Below, in pieces: positions 637 through 33,145 of a stretch of DNA of 64,000 bases. The position numbers were made by a program, and so were the translations under genes. This DNA is from Alphaproteobacteria bacterium (GTDB lineage Bacteria; Pseudomonadota; Alphaproteobacteria; JAAXGF01), in the NCBI GenBank assembly GCA_963555825.3, contig CAUVXB020000001.1:768001-832000 (forward strand), in the 5' to 3' direction. The notes beneath the pieces were generated by a model. It saw nothing but the letters and a program-made list of their open reading frames with translations, had not been told where the DNA came from and ran no database searches. The first letter of the stretch is position 1. Each line of letters begins with the position of its first letter.

Positions 637-878
637 TCAGTAGCGGAGTTCAGCCGTGACCGCGTGGTGATCACTTGGCCACACACCATCTATTGGGTCG
701 TTGCCCGTAACACGGCAATCCACGACGTGGCCCGCGCCACGGGCCTTGGGATCACCGACAAGGATGTAGTCGATCCGACGGTTGGGCTCGAATACGTCTC
801 TGGCATAGGGGTTGGCGTTGTCCCAGGTATAGCCCGATCCCCCATCGCTGGCCCAACCCCATGCATCGTGAAAGAATA
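637..878 (-). pseudogene. Endonuclease/exonuclease/phosphatase (EEP) family protein, C-terminal fragment cut by IS1595
   Basis: FHDAW...GYTW...RRIDYILV...PSDHHAV motifs; upstream part replaced by the IS1595 left end at 879. Confidence 0.8.
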
Positions 879-950
879 GGGAATTACAAAGAAGGGTTGA
901 CATTTTCATGCCGCCTCCCCATATCTTAAGGGTAGGAAGGGAGAGTGGAA

Positions 951-1925
951 ATGGCGAAAAAAGCACCCGGAAAAGCTCACCGCAAGGGGCTCACCATCGT
1001 TCAGTTGATGGATATGTTTCCGACCGAGAAAGCCGCCACGGCGTGGTTCGAATCGGTAATCTGGCCAGACGGTCGCCACTGCCCCAAGTGCGGATCGCTC
1101 CGCACCAGTGAGGCCAGCCACGCGAAGATGCCCTATTGGTGCACCGATTGCCGATCCTATTTCAGCGTCAAGACGGGCACCGCCATGCAGCGGTCGAAAA
1201 TCCCACTTCGGAAGTGGGCGATCGCGATCTATCTGTGCCTGACCTCGCTCAAGTCGGTTTCGTCGATGAAGCTGAAACGCGACATCGGTGTATCGCAGCC
1301 GACGGCGTGGTTCATGCTTCATCGCATTAGGGAAGCCTGGGGCGGCGACAGCGAAGGTCCGTTCGACGGGCCGGTCGAGTTCGACGAAACCTACTTCGGC
1401 GGGAAGCGCCGCAACATGTCGAATGCCCAGCGCAAGGAGCTTGCGGGAACGGGCCGGGGCGCGGTAGGCAAGGTCGCGGTCGTTGGCGCGAAGGACCGGG
1501 CCACCAACAAGGTTGCGGCGCAGGTGGTAGAAGCGACCGACCGCGAGACGCTGCATGACTTCGTAGCCGAGAACGCCGAGCCGGACGCCGTGGTCTACAC
1601 CGATGACGCGGCGGCCTACGAAGGGATACCGAACCCGCATCAAAGCGTGAAGCACTCGGTCTCCGAATATGTCAACGGGATGGCGCACACCAACGGGATC
1701 GAGTCCTTCTGGTCGATGCTCAAGCGCGCCCACAAGGGCACCTTCCACAAGATCAGCCCCAAGCATCTTGACCGTTACGTCCAGGAGTTCGCTGGCAAGC
1801 ACAACATCCGCGATTCAGGGACGCTTGTGCAAATGCGGGATACTGTCGCTCGGCTGGTCGGGCGCAACCTTCTCTACCGCGACCTCATCGCGGACAACGG
1901 GCTTTCGTCGGGTTCCGGGGCGTAA
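951..1925 (+). CDS. IS1595-family transposase (ISXO2-like, zinc ribbon + DDE)
   Basis: CPKC...CxDC zinc ribbon, VEFDETY, VYTDD, HTNGIESFWS, Y..EF motifs; GGAG RBS. Confidence 0.95.
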   Translation: MAKKAPGKAHRKGLTIVQLMDMFPTEKAATAWFESVIWPDGRHCPKCGSLRTSEASHAKMPYWCTDCRSYFSVKTGTAMQRSKIPLRKWAIAIYLCLTSLKSVSSMKLKRDIGVSQPTAWFMLHRIREAWGGDSEGPFDGPVEFDETYFGGKRRNMSNAQRKELAGTGRGAVGKVAVVGAKDRATNKVAAQVVEATDRETLHDFVAENAEPDAVVYTDDAAAYEGIPNPHQSVKHSVSEYVNGMAHTNGIESFWSMLKRAHKGTFHKISPKHLDRYVQEFAGKHNIRDSGTLVQMRDTVARLVGRNLLYRDLIADNGLSSGSGA

Positions 1926-2012
1926 AGGCTCCGTGCGCCGGAACAGCGCCTTAGCCAGTTTTTCCGGCGTTGCGCCCGCAAGATCGCGGGCGGGATCAAG
2001 CATCGGTTTCAT
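1815..2012 (-). CDS. Small hypothetical protein antisense-overlapping the transposase 3' end
   Basis: ATG ORF of 65 aa (MKPMLDPARDLAGATPEKLAKALFR) starting 11 nt after the passenger stop codon. Confidence 0.45.
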   Translation of the reverse strand: MKPMLDPARDLAGATPEKLAKALFRRTEPLRPGTRRKPVVRDEVAVEKVAPDQPSDSIPHLHKRP

Positions 2013-2023
2013 GATTGTTTAAT

Positions 2024-2569
2024 CTACCGAGATTTTGTTACAGCATGGTCTTCATACGCTTTCTCGCCGATCCAGTCCTCCAAATACTCCTTGTAATACA
2101 GTCCGTTGCGCTTCCCCCACGAGCACTCGTCGTTGTAGGTCTTAAGAAGATGACGCGCTATCTCCTTTGCCCGAATCGAAGATACTGTTGGGGAAGTGAG
2201 GAGTCCTCGATTCCGCAAGAGGGCCTCACCAATGGTCATCGTTTCGTTTGGCAAGCGCCATCGGACCAATGAGGAAACCACCAGAAATTTTATGGCCTCT
2301 TCTTCATTTATCCAGCCGACTTCAGGGTTGGCTGGGCTTTCTCCCGTGGTCGGGCTTTCTGCAATTATTTTTAGCGGTTTCTTCTGGGTCCGCCGCCATA
2401 TTTGTAGAACGCTGTTCCATATCTTTTTCCGCCAGTAGATGGCGCTGGGAAGTAAGCAGAGGGAAAGCAATGCTCCCCAGCCCCAATGTCCTAGTGGAAG
2501 CCAAGGCTCCATCAGAAACCCCAAGAAAATAGGGGCGACAGAAAGCCCTGCGATGACGAGAATCCACAT
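2024..2569 (-). CDS. Passenger hypothetical protein with two N-terminal transmembrane helices
   Basis: Lower-GC ORF inside the IS1595 TIRs; hydrophobic N-terminus, then WRKK and a soluble domain. Confidence 0.65.
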   Translation of the reverse strand: MWILVIAGLSVAPIFLGFLMEPWLPLGHWGWGALLSLCLLPSAIYWRKKIWNSVLQIWRRTQKKPLKIIAESPTTGESPANPEVGWINEEEAIKFLVVSSLVRWRLPNETMTIGEALLRNRGLLTSPTVSSIRAKEIARHLLKTYNDECSWGKRNGLYYKEYLEDWIGEKAYEDHAVTKSR

Positions 2570-2622
2570 CCGCGCATCCTGCCCACGGGCCAAATAAATG
2601 TCAACCCTCCTTTGTAATCCCC

Positions 2623-2687
2623 TTAACAAGGGCGTGAACATTCGCCGCACTGGCCAGCGCGGTCGCGGATGTGGTAGTCGTCTTCAT
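2623..2687 (-). pseudogene. 5' stub of an unknown gene (MKTTTTSATALASAANVHALVK) cut by the IS1595 right end
   Basis: AAGGAAG RBS and ATG at 2687; the frame runs into the TIR and stops. Confidence 0.4.
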
Positions 2688-3288
2688 GGTGTTGCTTCCT
2701 TTCTTGGTTTAAGCACCCCGAGCCTACGGCTCAGGGGAAGCAACGCCACCCTAATTCAAAGTTTCAACAAATACCGGGACATCCCCCGGGAGAGTGGCGG
2801 CACCCTACATGTAGCGGTCATGGGCGTTAACCGGATAGGCAAGGTTCAGTGAACACTTTTACCTGCCTCCGCCATCCCGATCGGCGATCGACCCATTGTC
2901 GTTGGCGGCCGTCATTCGTAAGGCGTCTTTGGCTTCGCGATAGAGCTGCCACAGTCGCGTTCGGCTCAGGCAATGCTTGTTCATCAACACCTTCCACGGT
3001 GTCTTCGGTGGCCCATCCCGCTCGGCGACGAACTGCCTTCCGAATGCAGTCAATCGCGGCGCTTCGCCCAACTCGCCCCTCACCCCGTACACAAATCAAC
3101 AGAAATACGCATTTTGCCCAACGACCAAAAGTCCACAGACGGGCCCCCATAGCGGTCTTGGCGGGCGTGGGTTTCGGCCCCCCGGGGTCGCGCGCGCATG
3201 CCTCGGCGAATGCCATTCGCCTGCCGCCGATCACACGGACACACACGCATCGCAATCGACGATCGAGGCGCCCGATCTCGCGACGGCA

Positions 3289-3332
3289 CCGGACTAAGAG
3301 TGCGGTTCCTTCAACCGCTCGGCCACCCATCC
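3289..3332 (-). pseudogene. tRNA-Ser-like relic (5' acceptor strand and D arm intact, remainder degenerate)
   Basis: GGATGGGTGGCCGAGCGGTTGAAGGAACCG matches bacterial tRNA-Ser 5' ends; no canonical TTCGAAT loop or CCA follows. Confidence 0.6.
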
Positions 3333-3474
3333 ATTACCGTGGCGCCGATAGACATCGACCGGGATGGCGACCCGGACGCGTCTTCTCGCGTTCGACTAGG
3401 TCACACAATCGGCCGAATGGGTCGAGGTTGCCGCCGCCGCCGAGGCCTGCCAGAAGAACCTGAGAATTCATGGT

Positions 3475-3543
3475 AATTGGACTGTCTTGACATTGATAAT
3501 CTGTCCATATAGACTGTTTATACAATGAGTTGACAGTCCAATT
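3475..3543. repeat. Perfect 12-bp inverted repeat flanking the promoter
   Basis: AATTGGACTGTC at 3475-3486 and GACAGTCCAATT at 3532-3543. Confidence 0.85.
3487..3515 (+). promoter_or_regulatory. Sigma70-type promoter TTGACA-N17-TAGACT
   Basis: Consensus -35, 17-nt spacer, near-consensus -10; AT-rich; upstream of the small-ORF operon. Confidence 0.65.
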
Positions 3544-3582
3544 TCTCAAGGGCGGGAGCCCGACGGACCCGGAGGCCATCGA

Positions 3583-3846
3583 ATGGCGATCGCGACGAGC
3601 AGAGAAGACCCGATGTATCGGGGCAGGCCGAGACCAGTGCTGTCATGGCGGGCCGAGGCGGCGCCAACACTCGGGGCCTTTGCCATCCTCCGTGATGGCA
3701 GCGGGTTCGCCGAAAGGAAACAGCGACCATGCGATTCTTCGCGTTCCTATTCTTCCAACAGTTTCGAGCCGGCGTTTCGGAGCATGAGGTGTGGAATGAG
3801 CGCCACATTTAGTGGCGCCGATCGATCCGCCGGAGGTATCAGATGA
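3583..3846 (+). CDS. Small hypothetical protein A (FxIxRDG family)
   Basis: GGAGG RBS; 22/39 N-terminal identity to the 4085-4342 ORF. Confidence 0.6.
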   Translation: MAIATSREDPMYRGRPRPVLSWRAEAAPTLGAFAILRDGSGFAERKQRPCDSSRSYSSNSFEPAFRSMRCGMSATFSGADRSAGGIR

Positions 3847-4046
3847 ATATCGCAACTGCCGTTGCCAACGATCGCCAATTGTTCGTCGAGAGGCGATCGG
3901 AATCGTGCAAGATCGTTCGTATTCAGGCCCCTGAAACTTTTTCAATCTATCGCGACGGGCTGCTCTGCGAGAGGCTAGTCGGTACCAATTCGGCGGCTCA
4001 AAATCGAACTATCGCATTGTCAAACTGCTACCCCGAGCATGTTTAG
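3843..4046 (+). CDS. Small hypothetical protein B (FxIxRDG family)
   Basis: GGAGG RBS; ATGA overlap with the previous stop; FSIYRDG at the same residues 33-39. Confidence 0.55.
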   Translation: MNIATAVANDRQLFVERRSESCKIVRIQAPETFSIYRDGLLCERLVGTNSAAQNRTIALSNCYPEHV

Positions 4047-4084
4047 CAATTCGAGTAGTGAGCCACGAATTGGGAGATCATCGA

Positions 4085-4342
4085 ATGGCGACAACGACGA
4101 GCAGAATAGACCCGACGCTTCGAGGTGGACCGGAATCGGCGTTGGCCTGGGGGATCGGTTCGGCGCCCAGCCTGGGGACCTTTTCCATCCTCCGTGATGG
4201 CAGGCTCCACACGCGATTGGGCGGCACGCCGCGACAGGCCCGATTTCGCACCGAACGACTGTCCGATCGGGCGCCGCGACATCACTGGTGCTGCATCGAC
4301 GAAATCGGCGGCGTCTTGATGAGCGCCGGCGGCGCGGAGTAA
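4085..4342 (+). CDS. Small hypothetical protein C (FxIxRDG family)
   Basis: GGGAG RBS; paralogue of 3583-3846. Confidence 0.6.
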   Translation: MATTTSRIDPTLRGGPESALAWGIGSAPSLGTFSILRDGRLHTRLGGTPRQARFRTERLSDRAPRHHWCCIDEIGGVLMSAGGAE

Positions 4343-4365
4343 CGCGGGCCTCGGGGGATGTGATC

Positions 4366-4635
4366 ATGCGCTTTGTCCGGCTTCGCGACTTCGCCGCCGA
4401 TCGAAACGGCAGCGCCGCTATAGAATACGCGATCCTGGCCGCGGGGATCGGGTTGACTCTCGCCATGACAGTTTCGCTGTTGGGTGACCGGATGATGACC
4501 ACGTACGGTAATATCGCCGATGCAATCATCGCCGCGAGTGGCGATCCCGATACGCCACCGCCGTGCCCGCCGGCGGGTAAAAGCAAGAAAAACGACAAGG
4601 GCAAAAAGAACGGCAAGCCATTCTGCAAGAGCTAG
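4366..4635 (+). CDS. Flp/Fap (type IVb/Tad) pilin with Pro/Cys/Lys-rich C-terminal extension
   Basis: DRNG|SAAIEYAILAAGI prepilin cleavage motif followed by a hydrophobic helix. Confidence 0.85.
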   Translation: MRFVRLRDFAADRNGSAAIEYAILAAGIGLTLAMTVSLLGDRMMTTYGNIADAIIAASGDPDTPPPCPPAGKSKKNDKGKKNGKPFCKS

Positions 4636-4767
4636 TGTTGCGCCGCGGCCGATGACGCGGCACCGAACGGCGCCCATGCACACCGTCGAACACATGGTTT
4701 CCGTCCGCCGCCCACGTAACGGTGTGGCGAAACTTCGGCGTCATTAGCCGATACCGTTGCAGCCCCA

Positions 4768-4880
4768 TCAGCGCCATTGAAAATCTGCGGCCGACAGACT
4801 TGGCCCGACGAAGAAGGGGCGCGTTGCACTTTGGCCTAACCCTGAGTCGAGATGGGCGTCCCGGCGCACGAAACTCTTGG
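4768..4880 (-). pseudogene. Possible glutathione S-transferase C-terminal remnant
   Basis: AHLD...RPFFVGPSLSAADFQ resembles the GST C-domain N-cap motif; short and frame-broken. Confidence 0.3.
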
Positions 4881-5007
4881 AGCGCCGGGCCCGGCCGCCG
4901 GCCCGAGCCCGGCACGCCGTTCGGCGCGAATATGCTTGCCAAGCCGCGAGGCTTCGTTCAATCATCGCCGCCCTTGGAACGATGCTGGCGCAGAATTAGG
5001 GCCCGCC

Positions 5008-15032: not shown

Positions 15033-15680
15033 ATGGCGGCGGGACGCGAATGGCACGAAGGCATCGTCAATCTGTGGCCGACCGTGATTTTCCAGCGAAA
15101 GCTTGGCGACGCGGACGGGCCGAACCGTGATTTGCTCAGGTTGATCAACGCGTTGGACCGCGAACATCAAGACCTCACGACCGATTATCTGGCGTCCGAC
15201 CTGTTCAACAAGGACGATCCGGCCGTCAATTGGCTGCGCAGCCAGGTCAACCAGACCGTGATCGGCTATCTACGCCAAATCGGTATCGATTATGAAGTGA
15301 ATTGGACTGTCCAAGGGTGGCCCAATGTCAACCGCCTCGGCGACTATCACGATTATCACAACCACCCGCGCGCCTATCTCAGCGGCACCTATTACGTCAA
15401 AATGCCGAAATCTCGCGAAAAACTCAAGAACCGTAACGACTTACGGCCCGGCTGCATCACGCTGTACGACCCCCGTCCGGGCGTCAACATGAACGCGATC
15501 AAGGGCGATCCCTACGTCGATCCCGAATATACGGTTCTGCCCGAGCCCGGCATGCTCTTGATGTGGCCCGCCTTCATCAACCACTTCGCCCACCCCAACC
15601 TGTCGAAGGAGACACGCGTCAGCGTCAGCTTCAACATCGTACTGAAATGGGCCGATCACTACTTGCCCGAACAGGGCTAA
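15033..15680 (+). CDS. Putative 2OG-Fe(II) oxygenase (TIGR02466-like)
   Basis: WxNV, HxH (HNHP), LSGTYYV, DPRP, MWPAFxxH, RVSVSFN. Confidence 0.85.
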   Translation: MAAGREWHEGIVNLWPTVIFQRKLGDADGPNRDLLRLINALDREHQDLTTDYLASDLFNKDDPAVNWLRSQVNQTVIGYLRQIGIDYEVNWTVQGWPNVNRLGDYHDYHNHPRAYLSGTYYVKMPKSREKLKNRNDLRPGCITLYDPRPGVNMNAIKGDPYVDPEYTVLPEPGMLLMWPAFINHFAHPNLSKETRVSVSFNIVLKWADHYLPEQG

Positions 15681-30884: not shown

Positions 30885-32945
30885 TTAGTCCTTCGGCGGC
30901 TTGCCGCCGCCCTTGCCGCCACCACTCCCGCCATTGCCGCTACCGCCAGAGCCGCCACCGCCCTTCTTGACGCTGATCGAGACGGTCGCGCTGTCGGCGC
31001 CGCCGTTGCCGTCGTCGACGCCGAAGTCGAACGAATCGATACCCGTGTAGTTGTTGTCCGGCGTGTAGGTCAAGCTGGCGCCCGACCCCGAGAGCGTGCC
31101 GTGCGACGGTCCCAAGACGATCGTGTAGACGAGCGCGTCACTATCGGCGTCACTTGCCGTGAGCGTAAAGCCGAGCGGCGTGTTCTTCTTGGTGTTGACC
31201 GATTGGCCGTCGGCGACCGGCGCATCATTGAGCGCCGTCACGGTGATCGACACGCTGGCGGAATCACTGCCGCCTTCGCCGTCCGAGACCGTGTAATCGA
31301 AGCTGTCGACACCGTTGAAGTCGGCATTCGGCGTATAGGTGACGGTGTCATCCGCGTTGATCGCGGCCGCGCCGTCAGCGCCCTGGGTCACGACGGTGAC
31401 CGCGAGGCTATCGCCGTCAGCATCGCTGTCGTTGTCGAGCACGGCGATCGTGATTGCGCCGTCCTCCGCGACGTTCGCTTCGTCGTCCGTAGCCACCGGG
31501 GGATTGTTCGACGTCGGCGCGCCGACTGTGATGTCGACGACGGCCACGGCGCTTTCCGACAACGGATCGCGCGCGACGAAGGCGATGTCGTCGACGCCCT
31601 CGAAGCCGGCATCCGGTGTGTAGACAAGGTTCGCGCCGTCCCCCGACAGGACGCCGTTGAGCGGTTGTACGACGACCTCGAAGGTCAGTGGGTCGTCGTT
31701 GTCGTCATTGGCGGTAAGTAAGATCGCGAGCGGCGTGCCGACCGCCGTCACGAGCTGCTGGGCATCGCCGACCGGCATGGCGAGCCCGCCCCAGTCGCCC
31801 CAGGTTTGCGTCGCTGTGTCGCCGTCGGTCATGGTGACCTTGGCGGCGACGCAGCGTGCCGGGCCGACCAGCTCGTGGAAAGTGAGTCCGAGGAAATAAT
31901 CGGCCGGCGGGTCGTAGTCGGCGGTGCGGATCGTGACGCCGTTGAACAGCCCATCGTGGAAGTCGGCCGGGTCCTGGGCGTCCATGTGCACGTTGGCGTT
32001 ATAAGACGCGCCGTGGTCGGCATAGTAAGGGCACTCATTGACGCCGCCGGCGCCGAAGCTCTCCCACGGTACATTGGTCGAATCCTTGTGCGTGTACTGA
32101 CGGTTCCAGACATCCATGTCGAACCACGACGGATAGACGTTGTAGCCGCGCGTGTCGGGCGTGTTGCCGGGCTGCGTGACATGCAGCGTCGCGTCGTCGT
32201 AGACGTACAGCTCGGCGCGGTTGATGTCGACCCGCTGGGCCGTCACCGTGATCTCGACGACCGGCGCCAAGGGATCGGACTGATCGACCGGACCCAAGGT
32301 GACCGTCGGCGAGGTGGCATCCTGGTAGGGCAGCACGAACAACGTGTGCACGGTGTCGCGCTGCCATCGGCTGAACACGTCATCGGCCGGCGCGTCGCGC
32401 AGCTCGAAGTGCAGGTGGTCGAAGCCGCTCGCGCTCTCGCCGGTATAGCCGATCAGGTCGCCCTTGCTGATGACGTCGTCGGCCGCGACGGCCCAACCGC
32501 TAAGATGCATGTAGTTGCTGTGATAGCAGCCGACACCCGAGCAGCTCGCAAGACCGGGGCGAAAATGACGGAGTTGGACCAGCGGATCGGAATAGCCGGA
32601 GTGGTTGCCGGCGATGATGACCTCGCCGTCGGCGATGGCGAACACCGGCGTGCCGATCGGCGTCGGGATGTCGATGCCGCGGTGGAAGTCGTAACGCGAA
32701 TTCTCGGACGTCAGCTCGCGCGGGCCATAGGTCGACTCGAGCGGCAGGTCGGTGAACGCGGGATCGCCCCAGCGTTCGCTCGGGCAGCCGTCGGCTTCGG
32801 CCCAGCCCTGTGGCGGGGTCTCGGCGATGCGGCCGCACAGCGGCCAGGCCGGCGTCGGGTCATATTGCTGAGCCGACGCGGCCGTGCTCCAGGCCAGCAC
32901 GACGCCGAAGCCTGATCCAAGCAACAGTTTACCCAGGTTCCGCAC
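30885..32945 (-). CDS. Secreted M23 metallopeptidase with three Ig/cadherin-like repeats and a Gly/Lys tail
   Basis: Signal peptide; FHRGID and HLHF zinc motifs; repeats of PVAxDD...YTP...GxDSFxY; GGAGG RBS. Confidence 0.85.
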   Translation of the reverse strand: MRNLGKLLLGSGFGVVLAWSTAASAQQYDPTPAWPLCGRIAETPPQGWAEADGCPSERWGDPAFTDLPLESTYGPRELTSENSRYDFHRGIDIPTPIGTPVFAIADGEVIIAGNHSGYSDPLVQLRHFRPGLASCSGVGCYHSNYMHLSGWAVAADDVISKGDLIGYTGESASGFDHLHFELRDAPADDVFSRWQRDTVHTLFVLPYQDATSPTVTLGPVDQSDPLAPVVEITVTAQRVDINRAELYVYDDATLHVTQPGNTPDTRGYNVYPSWFDMDVWNRQYTHKDSTNVPWESFGAGGVNECPYYADHGASYNANVHMDAQDPADFHDGLFNGVTIRTADYDPPADYFLGLTFHELVGPARCVAAKVTMTDGDTATQTWGDWGGLAMPVGDAQQLVTAVGTPLAILLTANDDNDDPLTFEVVVQPLNGVLSGDGANLVYTPDAGFEGVDDIAFVARDPLSESAVAVVDITVGAPTSNNPPVATDDEANVAEDGAITIAVLDNDSDADGDSLAVTVVTQGADGAAAINADDTVTYTPNADFNGVDSFDYTVSDGEGGSDSASVSITVTALNDAPVADGQSVNTKKNTPLGFTLTASDADSDALVYTIVLGPSHGTLSGSGASLTYTPDNNYTGIDSFDFGVDDGNGGADSATVSISVKKGGGGSGGSGNGGSGGGKGGGKPPKD

Positions 32946-32987
32946 CCTCCAAACGTCCGCGTCCGTCGTCTTGCGTTCCCCGCCGCG

Positions 32988-33027
32988 CAAAAAATACGAG
33001 CCCCCTCCCTCGCGGGCGGGGGCTCGG
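32988..33027 (-). terminator. Rho-independent terminator after the HAD gene
   Basis: CGAGCCCCC...GGGGGCTCG hairpin followed by TATTTTTT on the - strand. Confidence 0.75.
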
Positions 33028-33145
33028 CATATCCGATAACCCTCGGTCCGATGACAGTGCCGTCCAACCGGATTGCCACACCATCGTTGGCCGACAAACT
33101 ACCATCGGCACCCGGGCGGCACAGGGCGGTGAGGAGTGACGACTG

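Follow-up and report, generated by a model that had tools for sequence, protein, structure and literature searches.

The stretch of DNA considered here, called the window below, comprises 64,000 nt of an alphaproteobacterial contig (CAUVXB020000001.1, positions 768,001 to 832,000); all positions refer to it, on the + strand unless stated otherwise. Close to its left end, at 3475-4635, four small genes follow one promoter-like site. Three of them, open reading frames (ORFs) A, B and C, share the motif FxIxRDG, and the fourth codes for a pilin of the Flp type. B and C appear to be full-length members of a small-protein family that has not been described so far, while A looks like a partial copy of C. 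What these proteins might do next to a pilin is weighed after the evidence, which begins with the features of the locus.

3475-3495 and 3523-3543, no strand assigned: arms of an operator-like inverted repeat bracketing the promoter (arms of 21 nt, 81% complementary)
3487-3515, + strand: sigma-70-type promoter-like site, TTGACA-17-TAGACT (10/12 consensus matches)
3571-3701, + strand: 131-nt direct DNA repeat, copy 1 (ribosome-binding site and codons 1-40 of A)
3583-3846, + strand: ORF A, 87 aa, partial paralogue, residues 1-40 related to C, coding status uncertain
3843-4046, + strand: ORF B, 67 aa, member of a 71-aa family, ending at TAG 4044-4046
4073-4203, + strand: 131-nt direct DNA repeat, copy 2 (ribosome-binding site and codons 1-40 of C)
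4085-4342, + strand: ORF C, 85 aa, apparently an intact full-length member
4366-4635, + strand: Flp/Fap-type prepilin gene, 89 aa, Lys-rich tail with two Cys

Layout and promoter of the putative operon

From their arrangement, the four genes at 3475-4635 very probably form one short operon behind a bracketed sigma-70-like promoter. A, B and C lie on the same strand, each in a different frame, and the A/B junction is an ATGA overlap, with gaps of -4 (A-B), 38 (B-C) and 23 nt (C-flp) along the operon. A Shine-Dalgarno box, GGAGG or GGGAG, stands 6-8 nt upstream of every ATG. The starts retained for C and flp are the ATG codons used by their relatives, rather than those of longer GTG ORFs. An initial annotation, made from the sequence of this DNA, had reported three small ORFs with good ribosome-binding sites, two of them coupled by ATGA, behind a consensus promoter, and this description is borne out throughout. 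The promoter-like site is the sole one of its kind in 3300-4900, where shuffled sequences give a mean of 0.5.

The outermost 12 nt of the two inverted-repeat arms form a perfect inverted repeat. This 12-mer has three copies in the window, allowing at most one mismatch, against 0.15 expected; two are those at the promoter, in inverted orientation. The third, an exact copy, stands alone at 15300-15311 as a half-site, without a second one near it; the ORF that contains it has a 2OG-Fe(II) oxygenase domain, and the copy is probably there by chance. A terminator-like hairpin lies at 3729-3744, within A. An attenuator at this place was considered and rejected, as RNA folding of 3700-3845 equals that of shuffled sequences (z = 0.08). 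The Rfam search of 2500-5000 gave 0 matches.

The FxIxRDG motif and the relations among A, B and C

The motif occupies residues 33-39 of all three proteins, as FAILRDG in A, FSIYRDG in B and FSILRDG in C, which agrees with the identical positions reported at the outset. In the six-frame translation of the 64 kb, F.I.RDG occurs three times, always in A, B or C, as compared with a mean of 0.025 and a maximum of 1 in 200 shuffles of the window: its presence in the three ORFs is well beyond chance. The common start M[AN][IT][AT]T is equally real (MAIAT in A, MNIAT in B, MATTT in C), and the alignment returns the identity of A and C at 22/39 residues up to the motif. This identity is due to the 131-nt direct DNA repeat, whose copies, 74% identical, begin 12 nt before the ATG and end just past the motif.

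The initial annotation further had it that all three proteins diverge beyond the motif. This is true of A but not of B and C. Local alignment of A with C scores 111, against 25.6 +/- 4.6 for shuffled sequences (0/2000 as high), and the signal is wholly within residues 1-40; the two tails compared with each other score 21 against 19.5 +/- 3.7, a value reached by 663/2000 shuffles and thus at chance level. B and C present the opposite picture. Over residues 1-30 they are unrelated (score 11 against 13.0, 1775/2000 shuffles as high), whereas over residues 32-66 they share 19/35 residues, and their tails score 40 against 16.5 +/- 3.4 (1/2000 as high). Overall, B and C of the window score 73 against 21 +/- 4 (0/2000 as high). 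Compared as families by hhalign, they align with a probability of 96.7% (E 4.5e-10), with homology running through residue ~70. The joint B and C alignment, of 53 rows, is gapless over the 71 residues of the B family except for single-sequence insertions, and 18 positions are kept in at least 90% of its rows: M1, I3, T5, F33, S34, I35, R37, D38, G39, L41, L45, G47, A52, R55, L59, P64, H66 and W68. B and C thus appear to be full-length paralogues of an undescribed small-protein family, and the three ORFs together are best read as a mosaic, not as a common leader followed by three different tails.

Relatives and conservation of B and C

All 44 candidate relatives of B, at E <= 0.01, were retained as such. 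They are 55-97% identical to B, and 37/44 keep the family length (33 of 71 aa, four of 72 aa), the other seven being extended, truncated or frameshifted. For C, 13 of 18 candidates were retained, 71-89% identical, and 11/13 are exactly 85 aa long; of the two others, one has 92 aa, with its stop read through, and one 77 aa, owing to a frameshift into the window's +1 frame. Judged from these alignments, the case for B and C as real, conserved protein-coding genes is good.

Conservation is highest over residues 31-48 (mean column identity 0.91 in B and 0.96 in C) and lowest over residues 10-30 (0.77 and 0.69). This contradicts the notion of a conserved 39-aa leader with a variable tail, on which a likeness to ribosomally synthesized and post-translationally modified peptides (RiPPs) had been founded. 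The cysteines pointed out in the tails are indeed present in the C-terminal halves, but their conservation does not extend from one of the two families to the other.

The family is apparently lineage-restricted. A scan of 185,579 species-representative genomes, made with two patterns of the C family only, found no relative of C: 17 stretches fitted a pattern, and the matches at the 3 loci obtained span just 8-16 residues. At one of these loci, L001, the opposite strand carries a long ORF, of which the match is the reverse frame. Searches by tblastn with B, the B type and C gave no match in 50,697 phage or 72,556 plasmid records. Used as a blastn query, 3400-4700 yielded just a 60-nt match, to the conserved 5' region of flp in two Rhizobium replicons.

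Predicted structure and search for known families

AlphaFold2, run on the 71-aa B type with the joint 53-row alignment, gave five models of five in agreement (mean pLDDT 73.4-75.3). Residues 30-71 are predicted at pLDDT >90, with strands at 31-37 and 40-47, a helix at 49-62 and a strand at 68-70, while residues 5-23, in the N-terminal arm, stay below 50. The model of C, from its own 13-row alignment, has strands at 31-37, 40-47, 67-72 and 77-82 and a helix at 49-62. B and C would accordingly consist of a low-confidence arm of ~30 residues and a compact beta-beta-alpha-beta(-beta) domain (~30-70 in B, to 82 in C). FxIxRDG, rather than ending a leader, is predicted to open this domain, as its first strand and the turn of its hairpin; the cleavage after G39 that had been proposed runs against the models, which place G39, with confidence, in that turn, inside the folded domain. 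A, from its sequence, should be unable to form the domain. Kyte-Doolittle maxima (19-residue window) are low for A, B and C, 0.4-1.1 as against 2.0 for Flp, which indicates proteins with neither signal peptide nor membrane helix. C is basic (pI 10.1) and B near neutral (7.7).

No usable match was found in any collection searched, and the statement that the family is not recognised holds. Pfam and NCBIfam have nothing for A, B and C at E <= 1; the 45 B-family rows, taken to Pfam at E <= 10, gave just four unrelated single-member matches. The phage and defence families of PHROGs and PADLOC include none that A, C or the B type would match at E <= 1. Against PDB sequences, the best E value was 1 with the C-family profile and 0.35 with the joint B/C profile; Foldseek reached 0.087 (C) and 0.78 (B) against PDB structures and 0.024 against BFVD, and the ESM Atlas had no usable match. 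The nearest fold neighbours, none of them significant, are phage proteins of unknown function, T4 Dmd, AcrIF9 and a LepA domain. T4 Dmd, AcrIF9 and the small phage proteins resemble B and C in size and order of elements, with target-normalised TM ~0.5-0.7, but they differ in that Foldseek E is at least 0.02, identity is 4-23% and PHROGs gives no match: the likeness is one of very simple topology only. The B/C domain, then, matches no curated family or solved structure among those searched.

Two candidates were dropped on the way. DUF6894, a Pfam family of small alphaproteobacterial proteins with a similar order of elements, has no Pfam match to A, B, C or the 45 B members, and nothing in the literature came up under that name. 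P0015, a phmmer match to A, is an animal-type immunoglobulin protein; it was taken as a repeat or composition artefact and left unused.

ORF A as a partial duplicate, and the early stop in B

The profile of B and C matches A over positions 1-40 only, with 39.7 bits. Positions 41-71 find no match in any frame of 3560-3860, so that the tail of A is not a frameshifted copy of the domain, and its 47 residues are unrelated to B or C. A is most simply read as a duplicate of the 5' end of C, comprising the ribosome-binding site and 40 codons, joined to unrelated sequence. Lacking the domain, it would be a remnant or at most a derived mini-protein, and its standing as a genuine gene is doubtful. Its sole full-length relative among 1.8 billion representatives (P0014, 87 aa, 63% identical) has the motif degraded to FAIPRDR. 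The position of its stop is set automatically by the ATGA start of B, it differs from C about equally at the three codon positions (13, 9 and 11), and its codon-position GC (0.52, 0.67 and 0.62) is unlike that of the clear genes of the window.

Relatives of C come in two N-terminal types over residues 10-30. Residues 1-40 of A are identical at 28-30/40 positions to five C relatives of the second type, from other sources, and the same five share 25-28/40 with the window's own C. This suggests that 5' ends have been exchanged between A-type and C-type genes. Since this part of A is closer to those relatives than the window's C is, it may not be decaying freely, or else may be held similar by recombination with C-type genes.

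The B relatives P0038 and P0059 carry a 38-residue N-terminal extension which is A-tail DNA translated in B's frame, so that this DNA precedes B elsewhere too. Within the tail of A, in B's frame, there is a 27-codon ORF with a hydrophobic start (3729-3809, + strand). Its frame is open into B in P0038 and P0059; the window has TAG where they have Trp.

B itself ends early. Its 3' end reads GAG CAT GTT TAG CAA TTC GAG TAG, where relatives have ...EHVWQFE. The TAG at 4044-4046 replaces a nearly invariant Trp, carried at this place by P0019 (97% identical to B) and others, and the usual family stop would be 4056-4058. With the early stop, the final strand of the predicted fold is lost; the cause may be a true inactivation or an error of sequencing. 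In this genome, then, the unit may be in partial decay.

The Flp-type pilin and its possible linkage to B and C

Pilins of the Flp type have as their hallmark a short charged leader ending in Gly, followed by x4-Glu-Tyr and a hydrophobic helix. The fourth protein fits this description, with G15 / SAAIEY then a 20-residue hydrophobic run, the only such motif in the window. It matches Pfam Flp_Fap over profile positions 1-45 of 46 with E 5e-5, at a score (23.4 bits) below the cut-off of 32.2. Its 23 relatives have 81-97 aa; PF04964 is present in 12/23, and the source of one gives it the name Flp pilin. The G15/SAAIEY motif is invariant across the Flp alignment. All relatives share an unusual Lys- and Pro-rich C-terminal tail (4540-4635 in the window), and nearly all have two Cys in it: C67, which is invariant, and a second one near by (C-x3-C) or near the C-terminus. 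The two conserved Cys suggest a disulfide, hence an exported tail. By its sequence, this orphan pilin would be a distinct subtype of Flp with a Lys-rich, two-Cys tail. Neither a prepilin peptidase nor any Tad/Cpa family was found among the ~68 window ORFs scanned with Pfam, in keeping with the earlier description of an Flp pilin with no tad genes nearby.

Extra pilin genes of this kind have precedents in rhizobia. As described in the portion of PMC12918737 considered here, flp genes outside tad clusters are common in these bacteria, Bradyrhizobium diazoefficiens has five of them, and pilin retained in the membrane is discussed there as a signal. For Sinorhizobium meliloti, the portion of PMC10934763 considered reports an orphan flp co-transcribed with a hypothetical protein. 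The S. meliloti pair smc02446-smc02447 and the extra flp genes of B. diazoefficiens resemble the present locus, as far as these portions go, in having a prepilin gene away from tad/cpa with co-transcribed small genes of unknown function (PMC10934763, PMC12918737). They are set apart by description: in S. meliloti the partner is a hypothetical transmembrane protein (same part of PMC10934763), whereas here two or three soluble small proteins precede flp, and the window's pilin carries its Lys-rich, two-Cys tail. Literature searches found no paper combining Flp pilin with lysine-rich, and nothing relevant on Tad pili with small proteins, prepilin or chaperone; a paper on small ORFs in Bradyrhizobium (PMC5082802) has no mention of pilin, Flp or paralog.

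A co-occurrence of the small genes with flp had been put forward for testing, and it found indirect support for C. Three pairs of C and Flp clusters come from the same source and have longest contigs of equal size: P0010/P0065 (1643 nt), P0002/P0069 (1648 nt) and P0005/P0084 (1375 nt). Moreover, the read-through tail of P0010, LRRPRGM, fits the translation of the window's C-flp spacer (stop-RGPRGM-stop). C thus seems to adjoin an Flp gene in other contigs too. As for B, a single such coincidence with Flp is considered below.

Surroundings of the operon

The operon lies at the edge of a lower-GC stretch of the chromosome rich in insertion sequences (IS), just upstream of core cell-wall genes. 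G+C is 65.7% for the window and 51-60% for ~750-4050. To the left of the operon are found the following features.

2-400, + strand: 3' end of a DDE_Tnp_1_6 transposase gene (Pfam)
640-966, - strand: C-terminal fragment of an endonuclease/exonuclease/phosphatase (Pfam E 0.005)
878-2623, no strand assigned: complete IS1595-family element, with 28-nt terminal inverted repeats at 878-905 and 2596-2623 (26/28 identical)
945-1925, + strand: IS1595 transposase (Pfam)
2024-2650, - strand: 208-aa ORF of no known family, with a hydrophobic N-terminal part, its start overlapping the right IS repeat

This region is a graveyard of mobile elements, in which the endonuclease/exonuclease/phosphatase fragment appears to have been cut by the IS1595 insertion. 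The 850 nt of 2624-3474, with long Arg-rich ORFs on both strands, gave no family in 10 stop-to-stop frames and no Rfam match, and may be a decayed gene or a spacer. A divergent regulator upstream of the operon was considered and dropped, those ten frames being without recognisable coding.

To the right of the operon are genes for an MltB-type lytic transglycosylase, RlpA, a PBP5-type carboxypeptidase, DNA polymerase III delta', MetG and others. Otherwise the window has the content of an ordinary alphaproteobacterial chromosome, with ntrBC/ntrYX-type regulators, trkAH and hflX, and further with genes for the pyruvate dehydrogenase complex, enolase and CTP synthase. Its groEL gene shares 78-79% identity with copies found on plasmids of Methylobacterium, Paracoccus, Mesorhizobium and Bradyrhizobium. 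At 30885-33098, on the - strand, a 737-aa protein combines an M23 peptidase with Big_9 and cadherin-like repeats, an unusual combination.

Alternative explanations

Precursor peptides were the first idea put forward for A, B and C: RiPP-like proteins with a leader cleaved after G39 and a variable core to be modified. In its favour are the smallness of the proteins, the tandem array of paralogues, the fixed place of the motif and the Cys of the C-terminal halves. But conservation is strongest in the C-terminal part, which B and C have in common by descent; a fold is predicted across the proposed cleavage site, with G39 in a hairpin turn, and the two families do not share their cysteines. The modifying enzymes expected alongside are missing as well. 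Pfam scans of the flanking ORFs show no modifying enzyme, leader peptidase or exporter within ~10 kb, the neighbours being IS and cell-wall enzymes, and the sole radical-SAM protein of the window is a lipoyl-synthase-like gene 47 kb off. The idea is largely refuted, its chances being very slim, and we infer that B and C are not precursor peptides. Hardly better is the prospect that A, B and C are the remains of a decayed surface-protein gene with many fibronectin type III (FN3) repeats, each ORF standing for one former repeat. A strand-turn-strand with the pattern LxW ... RDG is common in bacterial FN3 domains (PF00041), and the ORFs have in common with them the local pattern LxW ... aromatic-x-aliphatic-x-RDG, a beta-hairpin with an RDG turn of ~30 residues. 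With A as query, phmmer finds three long actinobacterial-type multi-FN3 proteins, four to seven repeats of which match residues 13-44; built from 24 of these repeats, a profile gives A 13.8 bits and C 9.2 bits. The spacing of the ORFs, with 260 and 242 nt from one start to the next, is near the ~250 nt of one FN3 repeat. The repeats were, however, chosen by a search with A, which biases the profile towards A; B scores just 1.0 bit, and the match covers only ~30 residues, never more than ~35. Pfam fn3 misses A, B and C (E <= 1) and the 45 B-family members (E <= 10). The B and C models have 3-4 strands and a 14-residue helix, with no signal peptide, where FN3 is a helix-free, seven-strand, all-beta sandwich; the likeness ends by residue ~50, and what Foldseek placed on the hairpin from chitinase FN3 and related domains amounts to 17-20 residues only. 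Starts, stops and lengths, finally, are kept in 37/44 B and 11/13 C relatives. Given the predicted helix and the lack of an fn3 match, assignment to FN3 was rejected and the likeness kept as a local resemblance of the hairpin; descent from such a gene is most improbable.

Two other explanations have somewhat more to recommend them, though both are unlikely. B and C could be small DNA-binding autoregulators, swapped-hairpin dimers of the AbrB/MazE type sitting on the inverted repeat of the promoter and repressing the operon, pilin included. The perfect 12-nt inverted repeat, which flanks the -35 box and the start region and is beyond chance, would provide the operator; the predicted order of elements is that of swapped-hairpin domains, and C is basic. 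Yet neither Pfam nor NCBIfam places them among AbrB/MazE proteins, Foldseek found nothing below E 0.08 in a PDB that includes AbrB, MazE and SpoVT structures, B is near neutral, and the 14-residue helix is longer than that of the fold. Alternatively, the small genes might be cargo of mobile or phage-derived DNA (an inhibitor, an antitoxin-like or an anti-defence protein, for example), and their place beside flp incidental. In favour of this are the lower-GC stretch (~51-60% against 66%) beside IS1595 and transposase remains, relatives known only on mostly short contigs, and the best, if non-significant, fold neighbours, which are phage proteins, the T4 antitoxin Dmd and an anti-CRISPR at TM ~0.5. 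Against it, PHROGs, PADLOC and the phage and plasmid records offer no match, every fold match is above E 0.02, the operon lies outside the IS inverted repeats (878-2623), and the linkage of C with flp recurs. To our mind, such cargo is about as improbable as an autoregulator.

The favoured reading

Taken as a whole, the best explanation is that of one operon in which a new small-protein family is associated with an Flp-type pilin as its partner, and we would give it a probability of about 0.4. Its descriptive part is well supported. The functional link of B and C with the pilin is drawn from adjacency only. On this reading, B and C would be dedicated partners of the pilin in the cytoplasm, with an accessory or regulatory task. 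Their target might be the cytoplasmic leader of the pilin, the Tad machinery or a regulator whose gene lies elsewhere, and such binding would decide if, and at what time, the additional pilin is produced or enters a pilus. This control of its production or loading by B and C is a tentative proposal, possible but rather improbable as it stands. The second suggestion of the initial annotation, that of pilus-associated regulators, may hold in this sense. A more specific version, in which this family of cytoplasmic mini-proteins gates a specialised, polycationic Flp pilin and decides which pilin is loaded into a Tad pilus encoded elsewhere, is unlikely, and clearly more so than the general proposal.

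A series of observations weighs against the favoured reading. B clusters (44) outnumber those of Flp (23) and of C (13), so that B may also occur alone, and often without this pilin. Only one B/Flp pair has longest contigs of equal size (P0045/P0079, 893 nt), and no B/C pair does among the 44 B and 13 C clusters; the contigs of the relatives being nearly all ~0.4-5 kb, with exceptions of about 30, 32 and 267 kb, inferences about linkage in either direction are limited. With A partial and B truncated, two of the three small genes look damaged here, which argues against an essential role in this genome. The position of the operon beside insertion sequences means that its place near flp could reflect shared mobility. 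Codon-position GC is atypical for the genome in C (GC2 0.64) and likewise in A (GC2 0.67). The model of C, finally, was confident in only one of five runs (71.9 as against 56-36), from a shallow alignment.

What the locus may mean for Tad pili

The novelty is modest: it is that of an uncharacterised small-protein family attached to an orphan Flp pilin. If the link with flp is incidental, this would be one more lineage-restricted hypothetical family in a variable region, of minor interest. If B and C do act as gatekeepers, the choice of pilin in Tad pili would be subject to a level of control not described before. The B/C domain would make a small new family of folds. Soil and plant-associated alphaproteobacteria attach, sense surfaces and form biofilms by means of Tad/Flp pili, according to the portions of PMC12918737 and PMC10934763 considered here. 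A conserved soluble pair co-transcribed with an extra pilin would be a concrete handle on how such pilins are controlled.

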